Positions 26,747-53,040 of a stretch of 64,000 nt of DNA are shown one piece after another. Origin of the DNA: a virus; IMG/VR virus record IMGVR_UViG_3300005731_000013, positions 1-64,000 of that record. The stretch is one strand, 5' to 3'. The notes under the pieces were generated by a model. The model ran no database searches and had not been told where the DNA came from. It saw only the letters and a program-made list of their open reading frames with translations. The position numbers and the translations under genes are program-made. The first letter of the stretch is position 1. Each line of letters starts with the position of its first letter.

Positions 26747-28471
26747 CTATCTCCTGTTTAATATCCATTTTGAATGACCACAATCCCAAACTCGACTTAA
26801 ACCGAGACCTGTCATTATTTGTTTTTCTGATTGCGTAGGATCAAATCCTTCAGCGACCAATTTTTCTTTTTGTACATTCATACGATTTATTCGTTCACTA
26901 AAATTATATCTGTCTATATAAAAATATCCTGGATTTCCTCTAGAAACTAATTCAAATCCAATTTTATTATAAAAATCAGTATAACCCCAACAATTATTAG
27001 AAAATGTGATTATAACGGCAGGATCAACATCTTTAATAAATCTTGACAACAGTTTACTCGCACCACCGACAATATTTACACCTACACTGGAAGCAAACCG
27101 CACAATCTCCCATTCATTGCCATTTTTGAATCTATTCTTAGAAAATGTCATTACTGCCAGTAATTTGTCATTTTCGAATAAACCATATTTTAATTTTGAA
27201 TTGGCATACCCATCTAAATGATTAATGTCTAAAAAATCTCGGGCTTGTTGAACTGTCAATTCTTGTATTGTTGTATTACGTGCATAGATATTTATATTTT
27301 TTGATGTTATTGATTTAAGTCTAGACTTTACAATATCTTTATTTTTGTCCCATTCATCAGAAAAAATTTGTATTAACTTAACATTTTTTTCATTAGCGAG
27401 CTTTGTTTTATTATAATGGTAGAACTTATCTTTATCACATTCTTCAACATGCCAATAAAGCCCGTTTACTTCAATACCCAAATTTAACGTCGGAACATAT
27501 ATATCAATTTCTTTACCATCTAATATTTTACGATCTGAGCGTTGTATTTCAAAGCCTAGGCTTTCGATATATTCGCCAATTTCAAATTCAATATTGCTAT
27601 ATTTTAATGGTTTGCAAACAATACATCTAGATATTTGTCCATTTAAAATACGAGCTTGATAACTATTTCCACATTTCAAACATGTTACATTGTTATAAGT
27701 TGATGGGACATAATTTTCATCTATTTGAATATTATACTTTTCCTTATACCTCTGGACAAATGTTTTCTTTAAATTATTTGAAATCTTTTTTCTGACTACT
27801 GCATTTTTGGCAGGATTTTCATTTCCATATTTTTTTAAATTTGTTTTTTTAATTTGTTCAATATTGCAATAATTCTGATTTCCATATTTTTCTTGCTTTG
27901 TCTTCATACCACGTGTTGCAGCTAAATCATAATTGCGGTCTGCATGATTTTTTTCAATTATATCTGAATGCTGCATTACATTATCCACACCATAACGAGT
28001 TTGCACTGTTAATTTTGCTTTTTGTTTGATGCTGATATCTTGCATTGGATTCTCAACACCATAACGGTCTAAATTGGTCTGAGTTATTTTTTCTTTTACA
28101 GAATCATTTTGAAAAACATTCTCATTACCATACCGTTCTAGATTAGTGTCGGCTCTTTTTTTATTAATTGCGGCCTGTTCTTCTTGGGTATATTGTGCTT
28201 TTGTTTTTTTGACAGCCAATGATACTCTTTTAACATGACATGGACAATTTCTTTGACAAGCTCTGTAGCCGACACTGAATGAAATAAACCTGCTTTTGTC
28301 ACAATCCATTATTTTTTCTGGATAAACTAAATCAAATAATTCTTGTCCTGTCATTTTAAAGGAAAATAATGTTTCAATTTCTTTTAAACTTTTTCTAGAA
28401 CCCCACTGTCTAATCTGATTAAGATTTTTTCCAATCCACTTTTGTAACTTTGTAGGGATAATTTGATTCAC
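26747..28471 (-). CDS. Hef/Vsr-like homing endonuclease with TNLxxYG repeats and C-terminal GNAT-like domain
   Basis: TNLERYGNENV repeats, CxxC pairs, EIDIYVPTLNLGIEVNGLYWH, ARDFLDINHLDG..WEIVRF..GGASKL..RVWDCG; overlaps uvsW 3' end by 53 nt. Confidence 0.85.
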   Translation of the reverse strand: MNQIIPTKLQKWIGKNLNQIRQWGSRKSLKEIETLFSFKMTGQELFDLVYPEKIMDCDKSRFISFSVGYRACQRNCPCHVKRVSLAVKKTKAQYTQEEQAAINKKRADTNLERYGNENVFQNDSVKEKITQTNLDRYGVENPMQDISIKQKAKLTVQTRYGVDNVMQHSDIIEKNHADRNYDLAATRGMKTKQEKYGNQNYCNIEQIKKTNLKKYGNENPAKNAVVRKKISNNLKKTFVQRYKEKYNIQIDENYVPSTYNNVTCLKCGNSYQARILNGQISRCIVCKPLKYSNIEFEIGEYIESLGFEIQRSDRKILDGKEIDIYVPTLNLGIEVNGLYWHVEECDKDKFYHYNKTKLANEKNVKLIQIFSDEWDKNKDIVKSRLKSITSKNINIYARNTTIQELTVQQARDFLDINHLDGYANSKLKYGLFENDKLLAVMTFSKNRFKNGNEWEIVRFASSVGVNIVGGASKLLSRFIKDVDPAVIITFSNNCWGYTDFYNKIGFELVSRGNPGYFYIDRYNFSERINRMNVQKEKLVAEGFDPTQSEKQIMTGLGLSRVWDCGHSKWILNRR

Positions 28472-29279
28472 GATAATATTTCTTTCGTTCTGTTAAATGA
28501 CGTTTTGAATATTTTGCTGAGCTGCATAAATCATAAATTTCAACATGATCTTTATCAAACCCTTTTCTTAGTCCGCGGCCAATACTCTGGATTACTCTTA
28601 CAAAACTTTTTCCTGGTTCCAATAATACCATGTTATTTATACGAATAATATTGATACCTGTAGATGCAACTCCAAACGTTGCGATAACAATTTTACCATC
28701 ACCATCTTTAAATTTATCGTATTCTGATTTTCTATCTTTACTATCCATTTTACCTGATACAAAAATAATATCGTCTATACCTAATTCATTCAATGCTTCA
28801 ACAATCATTTCTCCAGTTTTGATATTATTAACCAACACCAAAGTATTTGAATTATTAGAAATATTGTCAATAAATGAGGACAGCCAAACCATACGTTCTT
28901 TATTTGATGTCAAATATTTCATTTCTGAATGATAATTGTCATAAACAATATCATCTTTCAATTGTATAACATTAATATCACAGCTACTCAAAATTCCTTT
29001 ATCTTGTAATACGCTAGATTGTAATGATCCAACTGTTGGTCCTATGCCAACAGCAATCGACATCTCGAAATGTTTTTCTTTTGGAATTGTTCCTGTCAAC
29101 CCCCACCTAATAGGAACATTTGCAAATGGTCCGGTCAATAGTTTTTTCAAAACATCTGCTTTACCTAAATGGCAGTTTTTTACCACAGCATTATTAGCTA
29201 TATAATTATGATCATTTTCAACATGTAAATTATATACGGTGTCAGGCTTTGTTATTTTTGTTTTTTTTATAAGTTTCAT
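28419..29279 (-). CDS. uvsW: UvsW helicase C-terminal fragment preceded by a split-intein C-part
   Basis: 35-aa IntC, then CHLGKAD..WGLTGT..ATFGVASTGINI..IQSIGRGLR (SF2 motifs II-VI). Confidence 0.9.
   Translation of the reverse strand: MKLIKKTKITKPDTVYNLHVENDHNYIANNAVVKNCHLGKADVLKKLLTGPFANVPIRWGLTGTIPKEKHFEMSIAVGIGPTVGSLQSSVLQDKGILSSCDINVIQLKDDIVYDNYHSEMKYLTSNKERMVWLSSFIDNISNNSNTLVLVNNIKTGEMIVEALNELGIDDIIFVSGKMDSKDRKSEYDKFKDGDGKIVIATFGVASTGINIIRINNMVLLEPGKSFVRVIQSIGRGLRKGFDKDHVEIYDLCSSAKYSKRHLTERKKYYRESNYPYKVTKVDWKKS
29175..29279 (-). mobile_element. Split intein IntC (35 aa) of UvsW
   Basis: MKLIKKTKITKPDTVYNLHVENDHNYIANNAVVKN|C: blocks F/G, terminal Asn, Cys+1. Confidence 0.9.
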
Positions 29280-29342
29280 AAAAATGTTCTACTTTTTTCT
29301 TTGTATTTGTATCAAAATATTCAATTCGATAAATTAATCACA

Positions 29343-30425
29343 TTACCTTTTGGCATATGTATGTATGTCAATAATTTCCATTTCATTGGTAATTTGATCT
29401 GCTCTGACCCAACCAATGTTTTCTACTAGAAACTCATGATTTGCTGTGACACGTATTTTACTATTATCATCAAACTCTAATTCAAGCATATCTTCAGATT
29501 CTGATTTGGTTAAATTATTATGCACTTTAACAATAGTATCTTCTTTATATGTTAACGTTTTTTCATCTAAATTAATAATTTTATCACCAGGTTGTAAGTT
29601 TGATATCTTTTTCTCGCCATCTGGTGTTAAAATTAATGTGTCGCCATCAAGACACTCATCTACAATTACAGCATACACTCCTTCGATAAATTCTTCCAAA
29701 GATAGCTCACTTTTGCCTTCTTGGAAATTTTTGCGCATGACTTCTAAACTTTGCCACGTACATATCGTATGAGTTTTGCCTACATCTTTTCTATCACCAT
29801 AATAAACACCAACATCAAGTCCAAGGTTAATGTAGTCTTCTTCAGTTTGCGTTACAAGATCTTTATTCGGAACAATGACTATTGTCCTTGCGCCCGCACG
29901 ACCTGACGTTATTTTCTGCATCACCTCATCTTCAGGAGTGATACTTTTTTCGACCAAATCACTTAACGCAGCCGTGACGATTGTCTTACCAGCACCAGTA
30001 CCAACAACTTGGACTGCTTTTTCATTAGTAATGAAATTATTGATAACATCAAGCTGATAATCACGTAAAATGACAGGTTGGCCTGCCACTGGATGACCCT
30101 CTGGCCAAAGTCTGTCTTTGAAATGATCAATTGTGATAGGTTTTAAGTCAATTTTATAACGTTCACGACAATCATCTAATGAAACTTCGTATCCTTCTGC
30201 AATCAGAATAGGCAAAATTTCTTCAAGCAAGTTGATAAATGTTTTGCCACCTAATTGGAAGAACTGCACTTTACCATCCCACCGCCCCATTTTATAGGCA
30301 GGGACATGGTAAGCATGTGGTAACATGAAAGAAAATTTGTCATATAATTTTCTTCGCGTAGAGGTGTCTAAGTTATGAATTTTACAGTTTGTTTCATCCA
30401 GTAATTCAATTTTTGCTGTTTTCAT
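29343..30425 (-). CDS. uvsW: UvsW helicase N-terminal fragment followed by a split-intein N-part
   Basis: GRWDGK, LRDYQ, GTGAGKT, VIVDE, then intein sequence to the stop. Confidence 0.9.
   Translation of the reverse strand: MKTAKIELLDETNCKIHNLDTSTRRKLYDKFSFMLPHAYHVPAYKMGRWDGKVQFFQLGGKTFINLLEEILPILIAEGYEVSLDDCRERYKIDLKPITIDHFKDRLWPEGHPVAGQPVILRDYQLDVINNFITNEKAVQVVGTGAGKTIVTAALSDLVEKSITPEDEVMQKITSGRAGARTIVIVPNKDLVTQTEEDYINLGLDVGVYYGDRKDVGKTHTICTWQSLEVMRKNFQEGKSELSLEEFIEGVYAVIVDECLDGDTLILTPDGEKKISNLQPGDKIINLDEKTLTYKEDTIVKVHNNLTKSESEDMLELEFDDNSKIRVTANHEFLVENIGWVRADQITNEMEIIDIHTYAKR
29346..29654 (-). mobile_element. Split intein IntN (103 aa) of UvsW
   Basis: CLDGDTLILTPDG (block A) ... IRVTANHEFLV (block B) ... 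GWVRADQI, stop. Confidence 0.9.
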
Positions 30426-30508: not shown

Positions 30509-30537
30509 AATATACACTTTTTATGTAATGATGTCAA
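30509..30537 (-). promoter_or_regulatory. Sigma70-like promoter upstream of uvsW-N
   Basis: TTGACA-17 nt-TATATT. Confidence 0.65.
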
Positions 30538-30552
30538 GTAATTAGTCAAATG

Positions 30553-30581
30553 AAAAGGACAGGCATAAAGCCTGTCCTTTT
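30553..30581. terminator. Intrinsic terminator
   Basis: aaaaggacaggc-ataaa-gcctgtcctttt. Confidence 0.8.
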
Positions 30582-30644: not shown

Positions 30645-30923
30645 TTAGAATACCATTTTTGCTATCACAAACGCTTCTTTATTTAAAATTCCAAGTTCAT
30701 ATGAACAGCGAAAACCCACACATCTAGACGGATCGATGTCAGTCACTGATACGCCATGCTCTGATAAAATTTGCAACATTTTAATCATAATTTCAGCATC
30801 TGTAAACATATTTAATCCTAATCCATACAATTGTATGGAGAAGCCGTCCGGCTTTTCAGAATCACCATGCACATAATATGTAGAGCTCACTTGAACTCCC
30901 ATAAATTTAAATTCATCAGACAT
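30645..30923 (-). CDS. Hypothetical protein
   Basis: 92 aa in early operon. Confidence 0.55.
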   Translation of the reverse strand: MSDEFKFMGVQVSSTYYVHGDSEKPDGFSIQLYGLGLNMFTDAEIMIKMLQILSEHGVSVTDIDPSRCVGFRCSYELGILNKEAFVIAKMVF

Positions 30924-30925
30924 GA

Positions 30926-31246
30926 TTATGTCCAGTGTGTAAAAACTATAATTTGAAATTGCGTAGGTTTAATAAACGGAAAACGTTCTGCAACAGCCGT
31001 TGCAATTGCAGTCTTGTCAAGATCAGCGTAAGGCCGGGCGAGCTCTACAACAGGAAAGCCTTCAAACTCATCTGACTCCGCTATAATCTTGCCTGCAAAA
31101 ACATAGTTGCCGCTCATGCCATCATACACCATGTCAAATGGTGCGCCGTCTAATCCTTCAATCACGTCTTCATTGTCATCATAGTCAACCTTATCGTATC
31201 CGATATTGACTGCCCACATTACATAGTCACGTCTACTTGTACTCAT
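30926..31246 (-). CDS. Hypothetical protein
   Basis: 106 aa with YDGMSGNY..AGKI motif. Confidence 0.65.
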   Translation of the reverse strand: MSTSRRDYVMWAVNIGYDKVDYDDNEDVIEGLDGAPFDMVYDGMSGNYVFAGKIIAESDEFEGFPVVELARPYADLDKTAIATAVAERFPFIKPTQFQIIVFTHWT

Positions 31247-31465
31247 TTATATCTCCCAACTGTTATCATGGTGTGTGCCGCGCACATCAACTTTGTAGCG
31301 ACGTCCGTCGCTCACGCTCACGCCTTGTTCAATAAGCCCGCGCAAAAAGACTGATGCTTCCATATCTGCTACTCTGATAGCTTGCTCTGCTGTTTCACAA
31401 AGAGCCATAGTTTGCTCTTTGCAGTCACGGACACGATATTTCCAACGGGGGTTTAGTTTCCACAT
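31247..31465 (-). CDS. Hypothetical protein
   Basis: 72 aa abutting both neighbours. Confidence 0.55.
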   Translation of the reverse strand: MWKLNPRWKYRVRDCKEQTMALCETAEQAIRVADMEASVFLRGLIEQGVSVSDGRRYKVDVRGTHHDNSWEI

Positions 31466-40466: not shown

Positions 40467-42029
40467 TTATGCATGCCATACCCATTTGATTTTTCCTGAA
40501 TCCCAGGTACGTAAAATGCCAGCATTGTTAGTCATTTGAAATTCTGTTAAATCATCTGAATAATATTCAGGCAATTTGTTTTTAATTCCTTTACGTGTGA
40601 AATAACTACAATGTCTCCATTTATTATCATACAAGTATCTATATGTTGGGCGTTGTTCTTCAATTTTTGTAAACCCTGTTTTTTCATATAAGTCACCAGT
40701 AAACCAATCATTCATTGAAAATGATACTACTTTATCGAATTTCAATTCGTTCTGTGCAAATTTAAAAGTTTTACTGAATAGACCTGGATGTGTATATTCA
40801 TCTGTCACCCACCGTTTTAATTCAAAATGTTGATTGCGTGACATACCAAATGACATTACACCTATTATTCGATGCATTGCATCAAATGCCGCAAAATGCG
40901 TTCCTGCTACATATCCTTGAAGGTGATATTTATTTAAAAAAAGTTTGGCAGCCTTACCTGAAATTTTATCAATTGTTGCTTTTCTAGCAGGGACGCCACG
41001 ATTCTTTAAATTCAATGAAGATTGGATCATTCTTTTGAATTTATCTTTATTATTATTCCAATCTGTCTCCCAAATCTGAATTAATCTTATTCCTTGATTG
41101 CGGGCTGAGTTCCATTTGTCTTGATGATATTTTTTATCTCTTTTTAAATCACTATGCCAATAATCGCCATTCATTTCAATTGCAAGATTATGACTTGGCA
41201 TGTAGAAATCCAATTCATAAGGAGGTATAATAGTTCTTATATTTTGATCAAATGTCACATTACAGTCATTCAAAAATGTTGCCATTTCCTGTTCTAAATA
41301 TGATGTTTTTAAAAATTCTGTTAAATTATGTTCGTGAATTTTTCGAATGATTGTAGATTTATTAACGCCAATTTCTTGAGCTAACTCACGGATAGATTTA
41401 GTTGTCAGTTCATGTTTTAGATTTGATTTATCTGATAAAATTAATTGGTATTTTGTCTCAATATGCTTATTATTGAAATGTGAATTTCCATATCTATCGT
41501 AATTAGTCTGAATTTTTTTATGCTGTATCGCTGCACTTAAAGATGGATTTTCAACACCATAGTTTTTTATTAAAGTCTCTGTTTTTCTTTGTTTTATAAT
41601 ATCACATTGTGACGGATTTTCAACACCATATTTGGACAAATTAGTTTGAAGTCTAATTTGTTGACCATGTTCAGTTTGTGAATGATATTTGACTCCAAAA
41701 TTTTGTAATGAGGTTTGCTCTTTTTTCAGCTTGACTTCAGAAGAATTATTACTGCATTTTGAACTACAATAACTTCTATAATTACCTCGTTCAGTCTGAT
41801 AGTGCGGGTTAACCACATTGTCCCATTTAACAGGTTGATTACAAGCAGAATTCATACAAGTCAACACACTATTATGTCCAGACATCAAATGCCAAACAAT
41901 TTGTTTGGGTGTAGCATTTATCTGTATTTCTTCATCTAATACTGATAGATCGTATGATTTTAATAATGAACGAGCAATCCTTTTTTGAGCATATAACTTT
42001 TGTAATTCAGACTGATTCATAATAATCAT
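40467..42029 (-). CDS. Free-standing Hef/Vsr-like homing endonuclease between the two terL halves
   Basis: C.NSAC, YCSSKC, TNLSKYGVENP repeats, HTH, ELDFYMPSHNLAIEMNGDYWHS, GNAT-like C-terminus. Confidence 0.88.
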   Translation of the reverse strand: MIIMNQSELQKLYAQKRIARSLLKSYDLSVLDEEIQINATPKQIVWHLMSGHNSVLTCMNSACNQPVKWDNVVNPHYQTERGNYRSYCSSKCSNNSSEVKLKKEQTSLQNFGVKYHSQTEHGQQIRLQTNLSKYGVENPSQCDIIKQRKTETLIKNYGVENPSLSAAIQHKKIQTNYDRYGNSHFNNKHIETKYQLILSDKSNLKHELTTKSIRELAQEIGVNKSTIIRKIHEHNLTEFLKTSYLEQEMATFLNDCNVTFDQNIRTIIPPYELDFYMPSHNLAIEMNGDYWHSDLKRDKKYHQDKWNSARNQGIRLIQIWETDWNNNKDKFKRMIQSSLNLKNRGVPARKATIDKISGKAAKLFLNKYHLQGYVAGTHFAAFDAMHRIIGVMSFGMSRNQHFELKRWVTDEYTHPGLFSKTFKFAQNELKFDKVVSFSMNDWFTGDLYEKTGFTKIEEQRPTYRYLYDNKWRHCSYFTRKGIKNKLPEYYSDDLTEFQMTNNAGILRTWDSGKIKWVWHA

Positions 42030-48125: not shown

Positions 48126-49643
48126 ATGAAAATAATGAGAACACCTAAACGATTATTCTGGATTCACGTTAAAGACCTTGACTTATCTAATATAGACCCA
48201 AACATCGTTGCATCTAAAAATGCAGCTCGTGTAAAATGGCACTTAGATAATGAAATTGCATCTACTCCGCATTGCATCAATCAAAATTGTAATAATGAAG
48301 TTAAATGGAAGGCAGGGCATGGTTACCAAACATTTTGCAGTCGTAAATGTAGTGCGCAAAATGAATCAATCAAACAACAAAAGAAAAATACATGTGAACA
48401 AAAATATGGTGTGTCAAATCCGAGCAAAAACACAGAAATTAAACAAAAAATAAAAGATACAACGAATAAACGATTTGGTGTTGACCATCCGTTGCAAAAT
48501 GACGATATTATGACTAAAACCAAGAATACGAATATAGCCAAATATGGTGTGTCGTCATACTCACAAACTGCTAAATTCAAAGAATTGGTCTCAGGTGACA
48601 GTAATCCGAATCGTCAACGGTTTTCACAAGACACATTAGATATCTTGAATAGTAAATCAAAATTTAATAGTTTGGCTGATGGTAAATCGATTTATGAGTT
48701 AAGTGACGCTTTAGAAAAGTTTGATATATCTACTTTACGAAAGTATATTCATCAATATGACAGTAATGTATTATTGCGACGGTCACAATTAGAACATGAA
48801 ATGGCTGATTTTTTGAATGATTTAGATGTTAAATTTATTCAAAATGAACGCAATATTATATCTCCACAAGAACTAGATTTTTATTTACCTGATCATAATA
48901 TTGCTATCGAAATGAATGGTATCTACTGGCATTCCGAAAAGTTTATTTCTGATAAATTTTACCATTATAATAAATGGAAATCATGTCATGATAACGATAT
49001 CCACCTGATATCTATTTTTGAAGATTTATGGATAAATCATCCAACTAAAGTCAAACAAGCATTAATATCATTATTGGGATTGCGACATAGTCCAGTAATT
49101 GGGGCGCGAAAGTTGCAAATCATGCAAATAAATGCAACCATTGCACGGCCATTTTTAAACAAATACCATTTACAAAATTTTGTGAATGGAACACATTTTG
49201 CTGCATTCAACTATCAAATGCAACCAATGGCAATCATGACATTTGGAATGTCACGAAATCAACATTTTGAACTTAAACGGTTTTCTACAAATGGCGGGAA
49301 TTTTCCAGGTGTGGCCTCTAAATTATTCAAATATGCACGCCAACAATTAGCATTTGATAAGGTTGTCAGTTTTAGTGATAATACATGGTTTACAGGCAAG
49401 ATGTATGAACATTTAGGTTTTGATTTTGAAAATGTAATTCAACCGTCATATAAATATTTTTATAAAGGAAATTTAGTTCATTGCTCGACTTTTACAAAAC
49501 AAAATATAGTTAGGAAATTTCCATATATGAAAGAAGCAATAGATAACGGAATGACTGAAAAAATTGCCATGCAGCAACTTGACATACCACGTGTATGGGA
49601 TTGTGGCAAGAAAAAATGGTTATGGACTGATAGAAACGGTTGA
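48126..49643 (+). CDS. Hef/Vsr-like homing endonuclease with GNAT-like C-terminus
   Basis: C.NQNC, FCSRKC, KYGVSNP repeats, ELDFYLPDHNIAIEMNGIYWHS, ARPFLNKYHLQ..FELKRF..VVSFSDN..RVWDCG. Confidence 0.87.
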   Translation: MKIMRTPKRLFWIHVKDLDLSNIDPNIVASKNAARVKWHLDNEIASTPHCINQNCNNEVKWKAGHGYQTFCSRKCSAQNESIKQQKKNTCEQKYGVSNPSKNTEIKQKIKDTTNKRFGVDHPLQNDDIMTKTKNTNIAKYGVSSYSQTAKFKELVSGDSNPNRQRFSQDTLDILNSKSKFNSLADGKSIYELSDALEKFDISTLRKYIHQYDSNVLLRRSQLEHEMADFLNDLDVKFIQNERNIISPQELDFYLPDHNIAIEMNGIYWHSEKFISDKFYHYNKWKSCHDNDIHLISIFEDLWINHPTKVKQALISLLGLRHSPVIGARKLQIMQINATIARPFLNKYHLQNFVNGTHFAAFNYQMQPMAIMTFGMSRNQHFELKRFSTNGGNFPGVASKLFKYARQQLAFDKVVSFSDNTWFTGKMYEHLGFDFENVIQPSYKYFYKGNLVHCSTFTKQNIVRKFPYMKEAIDNGMTEKIAMQQLDIPRVWDCGKKKWLWTDRNG

Positions 49644-51416: not shown

Positions 51417-53040
51417 TATTTTTCCAAATATATTTTGCATTTCCACAATCCCAAATTCGAAGCCAGCCATTATTTGTCATATTATCATATTGACTTTGCG
51501 TGTTGTCATAATGCTTTAAAAGTGTAGTTAAATTTGATCTTACTGCTTTGTTTCGTGATATTACGTCATATGTTCCTCTTCCTGTTTGCTTGGCATACAT
51601 ATAGCCTGGTTTTGAAAATGACACAAATTCAAACCCGTAACGGCTATAAACATTATCAGCATTGCCAAATCTAAGATTGGCGTATGTCAATAATGATTCA
51701 AAATCTTCTTCCTTGCATGAGTTGACCAACAATTTACTGAACCCGCCAGGAATATGATATCCATTTTTGATAGCAAATCTTGCAATTTCAAAAGTATCAG
51801 GGCCTTTGTTAAATCTGTCATGAATGAATGAAATCGCTGCTACTAATTCACCAGATGAAGTTTTCAACCCATAATTTATTTTTGTTTTGACATCACCCAT
51901 CAAATGATTTTCATTCATAAACACTTGCTTGTCAGAATGTTGAAGTTTGACAAACTTCAATTTCCTAGCATATATCTTTGTTTCATATTTGCCCAAACAA
52001 TGACTGATCATGCCTGTTACTAAATCAAATTTATTTTCAATCTCATGTTCAAAAAACGTCAACAATCTGATATTCTTATCTGAACACATTTTGAACTTAT
52101 CTTTCGAAGTATGTTTATTACGAGGATCAATTAAATCTGAATGCCAATAAATTCCATTCAATTCAATAGCAAGATTATATTCTGGTATCCAAATATCCAA
52201 TTCACGTTCTATTACATCTCTGTTATTTGTTTCAAAATACACATTTTGTGATATCAAATAATCTGCAATATAACTTTCTATTTTTGATACAGGTTTACGT
52301 GTTATTTTTAAATCATGCTTTCGAATATAACTCAGCAATGTTTTTGGTGTTATTTGAAGGTCGTCAGCATATTGTGTAAATGTCTTAGATTTGTCATCAC
52401 AAATTTGTTTACAAAACTCTACATTTGATAATTTTTCTAATAGTGATTCAGACATATGTTGCTGCGTATAATATTTGTTTCCAAACATTTTATTATGTGA
52501 ATCTCTGATTTTATCTATTACGAGTTGTGATTTTGCAGGATTATCATAACCATAACGTTCAATATTGGTCTGCTTAATCTTTTCTCGAATTTCAGGCGAG
52601 CTCGCTGGAGTTTTGGTCCCATAACGTTTTAAATTAGTCTGTTCACGAATAGTCTTTGTATGATTAAATGTATGCGTATCTCCATACTTATTTAAATTTG
52701 TTTGTTTGATTTTTTCAAATTTTGTTGATTTTGGATCATTTGAACATTTATTCGAACAAAACTTACGAAACTCTTTTTTGACCGTATCTAATGTGGTCTG
52801 TTTCCCACAAATCATACAATGATTAGTAATGGCTATATCATTGATGATAATCATAATCACGGCAGATAATTTATAATTTTGTAAGTTGTGCTTCTTGACA
52901 AATGGACTAACTATTGTTATGATATCGTCATAATGCTTCGAAGTTGTTCGAACAGTATTGGCATTGACCCTTCCTTTTGAATCAATTATCTTTGGAATTT
53001 TTAATAGTTCTGCCTTCGTCATTACAATACCTTTTAGCAT
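51403..53040 (-). CDS. Hef/Vsr-like homing endonuclease with GNAT-like C-terminus
   Basis: CMIC, FCSNKC, TNL.KYG repeats, ELDIWIPEYNLAIELNGIYWHS, FEIARF, GGFSKL, RIWDCG; TATAAATA directly upstream, true start probably MTKAE at 53022. Confidence 0.87.
   Translation of the reverse strand: MLKGIVMTKAELLKIPKIIDSKGRVNANTVRTTSKHYDDIITIVSPFVKKHNLQNYKLSAVIMIIINDIAITNHCMICGKQTTLDTVKKEFRKFCSNKCSNDPKSTKFEKIKQTNLNKYGDTHTFNHTKTIREQTNLKRYGTKTPASSPEIREKIKQTNIERYGYDNPAKSQLVIDKIRDSHNKMFGNKYYTQQHMSESLLEKLSNVEFCKQICDDKSKTFTQYADDLQITPKTLLSYIRKHDLKITRKPVSKIESYIADYLISQNVYFETNNRDVIERELDIWIPEYNLAIELNGIYWHSDLIDPRNKHTSKDKFKMCSDKNIRLLTFFEHEIENKFDLVTGMISHCLGKYETKIYARKLKFVKLQHSDKQVFMNENHLMGDVKTKINYGLKTSSGELVAAISFIHDRFNKGPDTFEIARFAIKNGYHIPGGFSKLLVNSCKEEDFESLLTYANLRFGNADNVYSRYGFEFVSFSKPGYMYAKQTGRGTYDVISRNKAVRSNLTTLLKHYDNTQSQYDNMTNNGWLRIWDCGNAKYIWKNNGKN

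Follow-up and report, generated by a model that had tools for sequence, protein, structure and literature searches.

Fractured genes, in which split inteins are accompanied by a free-standing homing endonuclease, have been described for gp41-1 to gp41-8, NrdJ-1, IMPDH-1, NrdA, DnaE, ligase, and TerL (Dassa et al. 2009, PMC2677866). Here we analyze a similar arrangement in the gene of a UvsW-type helicase, located within positions 1–64,000 of the virus record IMGVR_UViG_3300005731_000013. This stretch of 64,000 nucleotides (nt), referred to as the window, is part of a 168-kb contig from an uncultured jumbo phage, and the contig corresponds to approximately 46% of the genome according to CheckV. 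The helicase is encoded in two pieces, each of which carries what we interpret as one half of a natural split intein. As in the fractured genes of Dassa et al., the break in a phage DNA-metabolism gene falls within the endonuclease-insertion loop of an intein, the halves are adjacent on one strand, and an acidic N-terminal intein half (IntN) of approximately 100 residues is paired with a basic C-terminal half (IntC) of approximately 35–40 residues. The host is different, because a UvsW-type SF2 helicase interrupted at DE/CH (the slash marks the insertion point) is outside the eight hosts described previously (PMC2677866). The other intein surveys consulted likewise name hosts different from UvsW. 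The nearest relatives of the window match the published arrangement exactly, with an endonuclease open reading frame (ORF) between the halves, whereas in the window the halves are separated by 63 nt and no endonuclease gene. The endonucleases of the relatives combine NUMOD3 with a TnsA-like PD-(D/E)xK domain, in contrast to the GIY-YIG and "Vsr-like" enzymes of the described fractured genes (PMC2677866).

The split inteins of Npu and Ssp DnaE share with that of the window the canonical split site, with halves of about 102 and 36 residues, as well as Cys1 and Cys+1, a penultimate residue other than His, the lack of an associated endonuclease, and a similar fold (Foldseek template-modelling (TM) score of 0.82 to Npu DnaE). 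The DnaE halves are encoded at separate loci of cellular genomes, whereas those of the window are encoded by a phage and separated by 63 nt, and the fourth position of block F (F:4) is Asp in DnaE but Asn in the window.

Inteins homologous to that of the window occupy the identical DE/CH site of UvsW in the Salmonella phage S16 group (gp114/gp114.1/gp115, NC_020416) and Proteus phage PM2 (gp180–182, NC_055727), as identified by a tblastn search of GenBank phages. The IntN sequences of S16 and PM2 are 55–57% and the IntC sequences 54% identical to those of the window. In contrast to the phage studied here, S16 and PM2 are T4-type Straboviridae, their exteins are approximately 25% identical to those of the window, and a 291-residue endonuclease-like ORF is positioned between the intein halves. 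In the records of S16 and PM2, the pieces are annotated as "DNA helicase" twice and "hypothetical protein". Additionally, contiguous UvsW mini-inteins of metagenomic proteins (P0036, P0076, P0098, P0105, and P0113) have the same insertion point and sequences 55–63% identical to the intein of the window, but each is encoded in a single ORF.

Organization of the split uvsW gene

ORF A (30425–29343, minus strand) encodes 360 residues and can be divided into the N-extein and IntN. The N-extein (29655–30425, residues 1–257) is a UvsW-like SF2 helicase segment with a UvsW_N-like domain; it contains motifs Q, I (GTGAGKT), and Ia, and breaks off after the N-terminal half of motif II (VIVDE). The 103-residue IntN (29346–29654, residues 258–360) starts with Cys1 (CLDGDT), includes the block B T-x-x-H motif (VTANH), and is followed by a stop codon at 29343–29345. 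ORF B (29279–28419, minus strand) encodes 286 residues, and its translation opens with MKLIKKTKITKP...VYNLHVENDHNYIANNAVVKN. The first 35 residues (29175–29279) constitute IntC, with the Lys-rich start MKLIKKTKITKP, block F VYNLHVENDHNY, and block G AVVKN, which ends in the terminal Asn. The C-extein (28419–29174, 251 residues and the stop codon) begins with CHLGK at residue 36 of ORF B and matches Helicase_C. With its Cys+1 and His, it supplies the second half of motif II (DE-CH), and the remaining sequence contains helicase motifs III–VI, including motifs III (GLTGT), V, and VI (QSIGRGLR).

The 63-nt spacer between the ORFs (29280–29342, minus strand) is in frame with both of them. Together with the stop codon of ORF A, the spacer forms 22 codons that hold TAA, TAA, and TAG (Q361, Q364, and Q379 in the read-through translation), and therefore has two stops (TAA and TAG) in addition to that of ORF A. 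It contains no endonuclease gene, terminator-like site, or clear Shine-Dalgarno core ahead of the IntC start. The break in the intein separates block B from block F, in the region that is occupied by a short linker in contiguous relatives. IntN has a net charge of −10 and IntC of +3, with +5 in the first 12 residues of IntC. The original prediction, made from the sequence without database searches, had proposed this ORF layout, with halves of 103 and 35 residues, the VIVDE/CLDGDT and CHLGK borders, the in-frame spacer with its two extra stops, and the charge complementarity of the halves, and all of these were reproduced in our analysis.

The host gene is a UvsW-type SF2 helicase of recombination and repair. 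The best match of the C-extein in the PDB is UvsW of phage T4 (2OCA, residues 234–476, E-value 2.9e-20), and the N-extein weakly matches the N-terminal fragment of the same protein (1RIF, 4e-4). The Pfam score of UvsW_N, 24.7 bits, is slightly below the cut-off of 25.3, and those of ResIII/DEAD and Helicase_C are above theirs. The exteins add up to 257 + 251 = 508 residues, and the joined product, which had been predicted to restore the DECH box, is colinear with intact homologues of approximately 520 residues. It is 66.7% identical to one of them, the intein-free P0017, from end to end and has no insertion or deletion at the junction, where VIVDE-CH is aligned opposite VIVDEAH of the intact homologues, DECQ of phage 121Q, and MNDECH of PM2. 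All helicase motifs are retained in the joined exteins. Because uvsW is broken within an ATPase motif, and each of the resulting genes carries half of an intein, the enzyme would have to be rejoined after translation.

The same features bear on the possibility that the split is an artefact, in which a contiguous cis-splicing mini-intein was broken by an assembly or sequencing error, or a stop codon was reassigned. Such an origin is consistent with the contiguous mini-inteins known at this site and with the spacer being in frame, but it is at odds with the three stops of two kinds within 22 codons, which a single sequencing error is insufficient to explain, and with the length of the linker, which exceeds that of the contiguous forms by 10–20 residues. 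Furthermore, independent loci of other samples have the same split with several stops (e.g., L019), and short spacers were identified in 15 loci. An artefactual split is thus very improbable. Stop-codon reassignment was rejected because the stops are of mixed type and the ORFs are normal under translation table 11; this applies to the long ORFs of the window, and both ORF A and ORF B terminate with TAA.

Intein fold and splicing residues

Searches with intein profiles provided matches in both ORFs. ORF A matches ResIII, DEAD, and UvsW_N, together with Intein_splicing positions 2–89 and Hint in its IntN part, and ORF B matches Helicase_C and Intein_splicing positions 125–155. Each intein half by itself scores under the Pfam gathering score. 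In a six-frame search of the contig with stops read through, the Intein_splicing score is 54 bits, compared to the cut-off of 35.8. The 168-kb contig contains one intein and one uvsW only. A profile constructed from 35 members of the family matches the solved intein of Spl DnaX (4.5e-19), as well as those of Npu and Ssp DnaB, NrdJ-1, gp41-1, RecA, and DnaE.

The alignment of the 35 family members was also used for the AlphaFold prediction of the read-through sequence, composed of IntN, the 22-residue spacer, IntC, and Cys+1. The model has a mean predicted local distance difference test (pLDDT) value of 90.1 and a predicted TM (pTM) score of 0.84. The pLDDT values are above 90 for IntN and 97–98 for IntC, and disorder is confined to the artificial linker. 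The top matches of the model identified by Foldseek in the PDB are all inteins or HINT domains with a probability of 1.00, including a bacterial intein-like domain (target-normalised TM score of 0.85), gp41-1 (0.83), Npu DnaE (0.82, as given above), and NrdJ-1 (0.78). The HINT fold is present in the predicted structure.

The natural split intein at DE/CH of UvsW put forward in the original prediction is supported by the domain matches, the model with a HINT fold, the colinearity of the exteins, and the homologous split loci. We estimate at roughly 0.85 the probability that the element is a natural, canonically split class-1-type intein at motif II of UvsW, taken jointly with the following explanation as a whole. 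The adjacent ORFs are probably co-transcribed and would be translated into two proteins. IntN, which is acidic, would associate with the basic start of IntC to form a single HINT domain, in which an N-S acyl shift at Cys1 would be followed by thioester transfer to Cys+1, cyclisation of the terminal Asn, and an S-N shift. UvsW is probably rebuilt by this trans-splicing, the outcome of which would be a 508-residue helicase whose DECH box is intact. The locus would represent a "fractured uvsW", a widespread element, in the state that lacks the endonuclease, the NUMOD3/TnsA-like gene having been lost and a 63-nt spacer left.

The residues that would participate in these steps are conserved. Cys1, which is Cys258 of ORF A and directly follows VIVDE, is kept in every aligned IntN, and the Thr and His of the block B T-x-x-H motif are invariant in the IntN alignment. 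The end of IntC, VVKN, is followed by CHLGK, and neither the terminal Asn nor Cys+1 varies among the aligned IntC sequences. The His of the DHN(Y/F) motif is kept in every aligned sequence that covers this position.

Several observations weigh against the trans-splicing of UvsW. Position F:4, which is normally Asp in class-1 inteins, is occupied by Asn (VYNLH), and the HMMER alignment places VYDIE of Spl DnaX opposite VYNLH. Asp is found at this position in the DnaB, gp41-1, and DnaE inteins, and in characterised inteins the block F Asp aids the coupling of the splicing steps. The deviation was not mentioned in the original prediction. The penultimate residue of the intein is Lys instead of His. 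A crude test did not find a Shine-Dalgarno-like core ahead of the IntC start; by the same test, such a core is missing from 22 of the 50 long ORFs in the window. Since the contig covers only approximately 46% of the genome, an additional intact uvsW may be located elsewhere. The spacer does not contain a recognisable scar, and thus we infer the direction of change, that is, whether the endonuclease was lost or was never there. Finally, we infer splicing activity throughout.

The two departures from the class-1 pattern are placed in context by the family alignment. Asn is the majority state at F:4, including S16 and PM2, whereas Thr is found in L016 and L019, and Asp in the distant P0266. Because the F:4 Asn is common to the cultured phages S16 and PM2, it is a trait of the family and not a sign of local decay. 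The penultimate position is occupied by Ser, Ala, His, Lys, Gln, or Glu across the family, and the penultimate His is also missing in Npu DnaE. The Lys pointed out in the original prediction is real, but, given the variability of this position, it is not an anomaly.

It is nevertheless possible to interpret the intein halves as decayed and splicing-dead, with the helicase being a pseudogene or functioning only as two pieces that the intein halves keep together non-covalently. In a comparable case, phage Aeh1 has a split NrdA whose assembly does not involve splicing. The substitutions of the block F Asp by Asn and of the penultimate His by Lys could be read in this way, but the first is typical of the family, including the cultured S16 and PM2, and all the nucleophiles, the T-x-x-H motif, and the terminal Asn are retained. 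Similarly, no clear ribosome-binding site precedes the IntC ORF, and a related locus (L020) has a stop within IntN, but both ORFs of the window are intact. The endonuclease is gone, and in the homing-cycle model its loss marks a late, decaying stage; however, all helicase motifs are retained, and a 138-residue HINT domain would presumably block ATPase activity if it stayed in the Walker B box. Moreover, S16 and PM2 are viable cultured phages with the same intein at the same site, which we count in favor of splicing. Taken together, a splicing-dead remnant appears unlikely.

Co-transcription of the two ORFs is suggested by the arrangement of the putative expression signals. A promoter-like site with 11 of 12 consensus matches (30509–30537, minus strand; TTGACA, 17 nt, TATATT), identified by a consensus scan alone, is positioned upstream of ORF A and may drive both ORFs. 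No convincing terminator-like site was found between ORF A and ORF B, and the sole match on the minus strand is a weak hairpin within the IntN coding sequence. Just upstream of the promoter-like site there is a strong hairpin with a 12-bp stem and a T-run (30553–30581). The hairpin is palindromic and terminator-like on the plus strand, and it may be active in both directions.

Distribution and arrangement states of the uvsW intein

A megablast search with the locus provided no match among GenBank phages, indicating that the phage has no close cultured relative. Hundreds of other phages, however, possess the same intein element. The PHROG families phrog_16259 and phrog_9690 span the entire ORF A and ORF B, including the intein halves. 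Among the best 119 clusters from a collection of 5.8 billion proteins, sorted by a motif script, approximately 81–87 are N-fragments that terminate in IntN (336–364 residues), five are contiguous mini-inteins (619–626 residues), and 26 are intein-free. A phmmer search of a representative set of 1.8 billion proteins yielded 1302 matches at E ≤0.001, many of which terminate directly past IntN. No description of a UvsW split intein was found in the literature searched, the coverage of which does not extend to most subscription journals. The proposal that UvsW is a new host therefore holds in that the intein is, as far as found, unpublished, but the element itself is not new, because it is present in S16, PM2, the two PHROG families, and metagenomes. 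The element is widespread and already sequenced, and a description in the literature appears to be lacking.

The similarity of the inteins is not matched by that of their hosts. The intein halves of PM2 and the window are 57 and 54% identical, whereas the corresponding exteins are 24.5 and 25.6% identical; for locus L010 the values are 66 and 80% for the intein and 48 and 51% for the exteins. The identity of the IntC to those of related loci ranges from 54 to 80%. The GC content is 27% in the intein region compared to 35.5% in the window. The decoupling of intein identity from extein identity points to horizontal spread and fits homing between distant phage lineages.

A profile of IntN only retrieved 72 loci from IMG/VR, and both halves could be placed in 68 of them; the counts were not de-duplicated. 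In 45 of the 68 loci, the halves are separated by an insert of approximately 900 nt, which encodes an ORF of approximately 300 residues with NUMOD3 and a TnsA-like PD-(D/E)xK domain. Another 15 loci are split with a short spacer only and belong to at least seven classes: a 14-nt overlap and gaps of 15, 51, 54, 82, 101, and 140 nt. The overlap is found in L112 and L152, where the IntC start codon precedes the IntN stop by 14 nt, and the two halves are in different frames. Eight loci were scored as contiguous by the script, including L167, which is spurious. Contiguous mini-inteins at the same site are represented by the five proteins listed above and by loci L007–L009. Some of the contiguous forms retain the Met of IntC within the linker (..NYMKLIKR..), which hints at interconversion between the split and fused states. 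In P0128, P0171, and P0129, IntN is apparently in frame with a NUMOD3/TnsA-like endonuclease, with no stop between them, and this layout appears to be yet another state, intermediate between bifunctional inteins and fractured genes. The related fractured locus L020 has an in-frame stop in its IntN region (L020:4724–5044) and may be a decaying copy.

The three nearest relatives of the window (P0004, P0008, and P0006; 64–69% identity) all have the endonuclease ORF, and its loss from the window is therefore the most economical explanation of the 63-nt layout. The spacer was compared with L094, L095, and L005, and no significant match indicating a deletion scar was found. The only match of the spacer region is 28 nt long, to L019, and is located in the start of the IntC coding sequence.

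A more speculative explanation, and in our opinion a quite improbable one, is that the endonuclease-less adjacent split is a retained device for the post-translational control of UvsW, and not merely a product of decay. The availability of UvsW, a helicase that switches replication from the origin-dependent to the recombination-dependent mode, would then be delayed or dosed. The ligation might respond to the redox state of the two cysteines, Cys1 and Cys+1, and might be tuned by the unusual block F Asn. The at least seven classes of short spacers would reflect selection rather than repeated decay.

The trans-splicing intein without an endonuclease, which is our preferred interpretation of the locus, would add UvsW, with an insertion site in the Walker B motif (DE/CH), to the hosts of natural split inteins. 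A single intein family includes all states, namely intein-free, contiguous mini-intein, IntN-endonuclease fusion, fractured with the endonuclease, and split without it, and thus provides a good natural series on the origin and decay of split inteins. Since the family is large, is spread over phage lineages with helicases that are only approximately 25% identical, and contains the unusual F:4 Asn, it could supply new orthogonal Cys-dependent trans-splicing pairs. The triplets annotated as "DNA helicase", "hypothetical protein", and "DNA helicase" in phages such as S16 and PM2 should be read as a single spliced UvsW.

Neighbouring genes and further selfish elements

The gene order around uvsW is shared with the metagenomic contig L095 and comprises a recA/uvsX-type gene, small genes, an AAA ATPase gene, uvsW, and a conserved gene encoding 166 residues. 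The recA/uvsX-type gene is located approximately 5 kb upstream of uvsW, and its synteny is conserved. Three small ORFs of 92, 106, and 72 residues (30645–31465, minus strand) are positioned between the AAA ATPase gene and the N-terminal part of uvsW; a tblastn search provided no match to them among the genes of L095.

A free-standing homing-endonuclease-like gene (26747–28471, minus strand) is located between the C-terminal part of uvsW and the conserved 166-residue gene. It encodes 574 residues from a GTG start, in which case it overlaps the end of uvsW, or 535 residues from an ATG at 28354. The protein belongs to phrog_3339/phrog_559 (homing or HNH endonuclease), contains DUF7487 repeats, and has a weak match to Vsr/PD-(D/E)xK. 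The gene is missing from the syntenic locus L095. At least eight members of its family, of approximately 510–650 residues, are scattered through the 168-kb contig, with paralogues at positions 40476–41753, 48354–49625, 51424–52719, 63529–65115, 65577–66959, 80731–82059, and 83384–84259 (G000 coordinates). We considered whether the gene might be the displaced endonuclease of the intein and rejected this, because its product is not similar to the ORF within the PM2 intein and has at least eight paralogues; we treat it as an unrelated free-standing element. The free-standing endonuclease SegE of phage T4 adjoins uvsW and cuts it (PMC2988022), and uvsW is therefore a known target region for such elements.

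Further selfish elements are associated with uvsW in other phages. The metagenomic protein P0063, a 510-residue N-fragment of UvsW, contains two inteins: an IntN half at DE/C, and a contiguous intein that interrupts the Walker A loop (ATGAGK/C...HHN/T). In S16 (L004, 2176–2811), the annotated homing endonuclease gp113 is encoded between inh and the N-terminal part of uvsW, in the position of T4 segE, and is additional to the endonuclease-like ORF that separates the intein halves.

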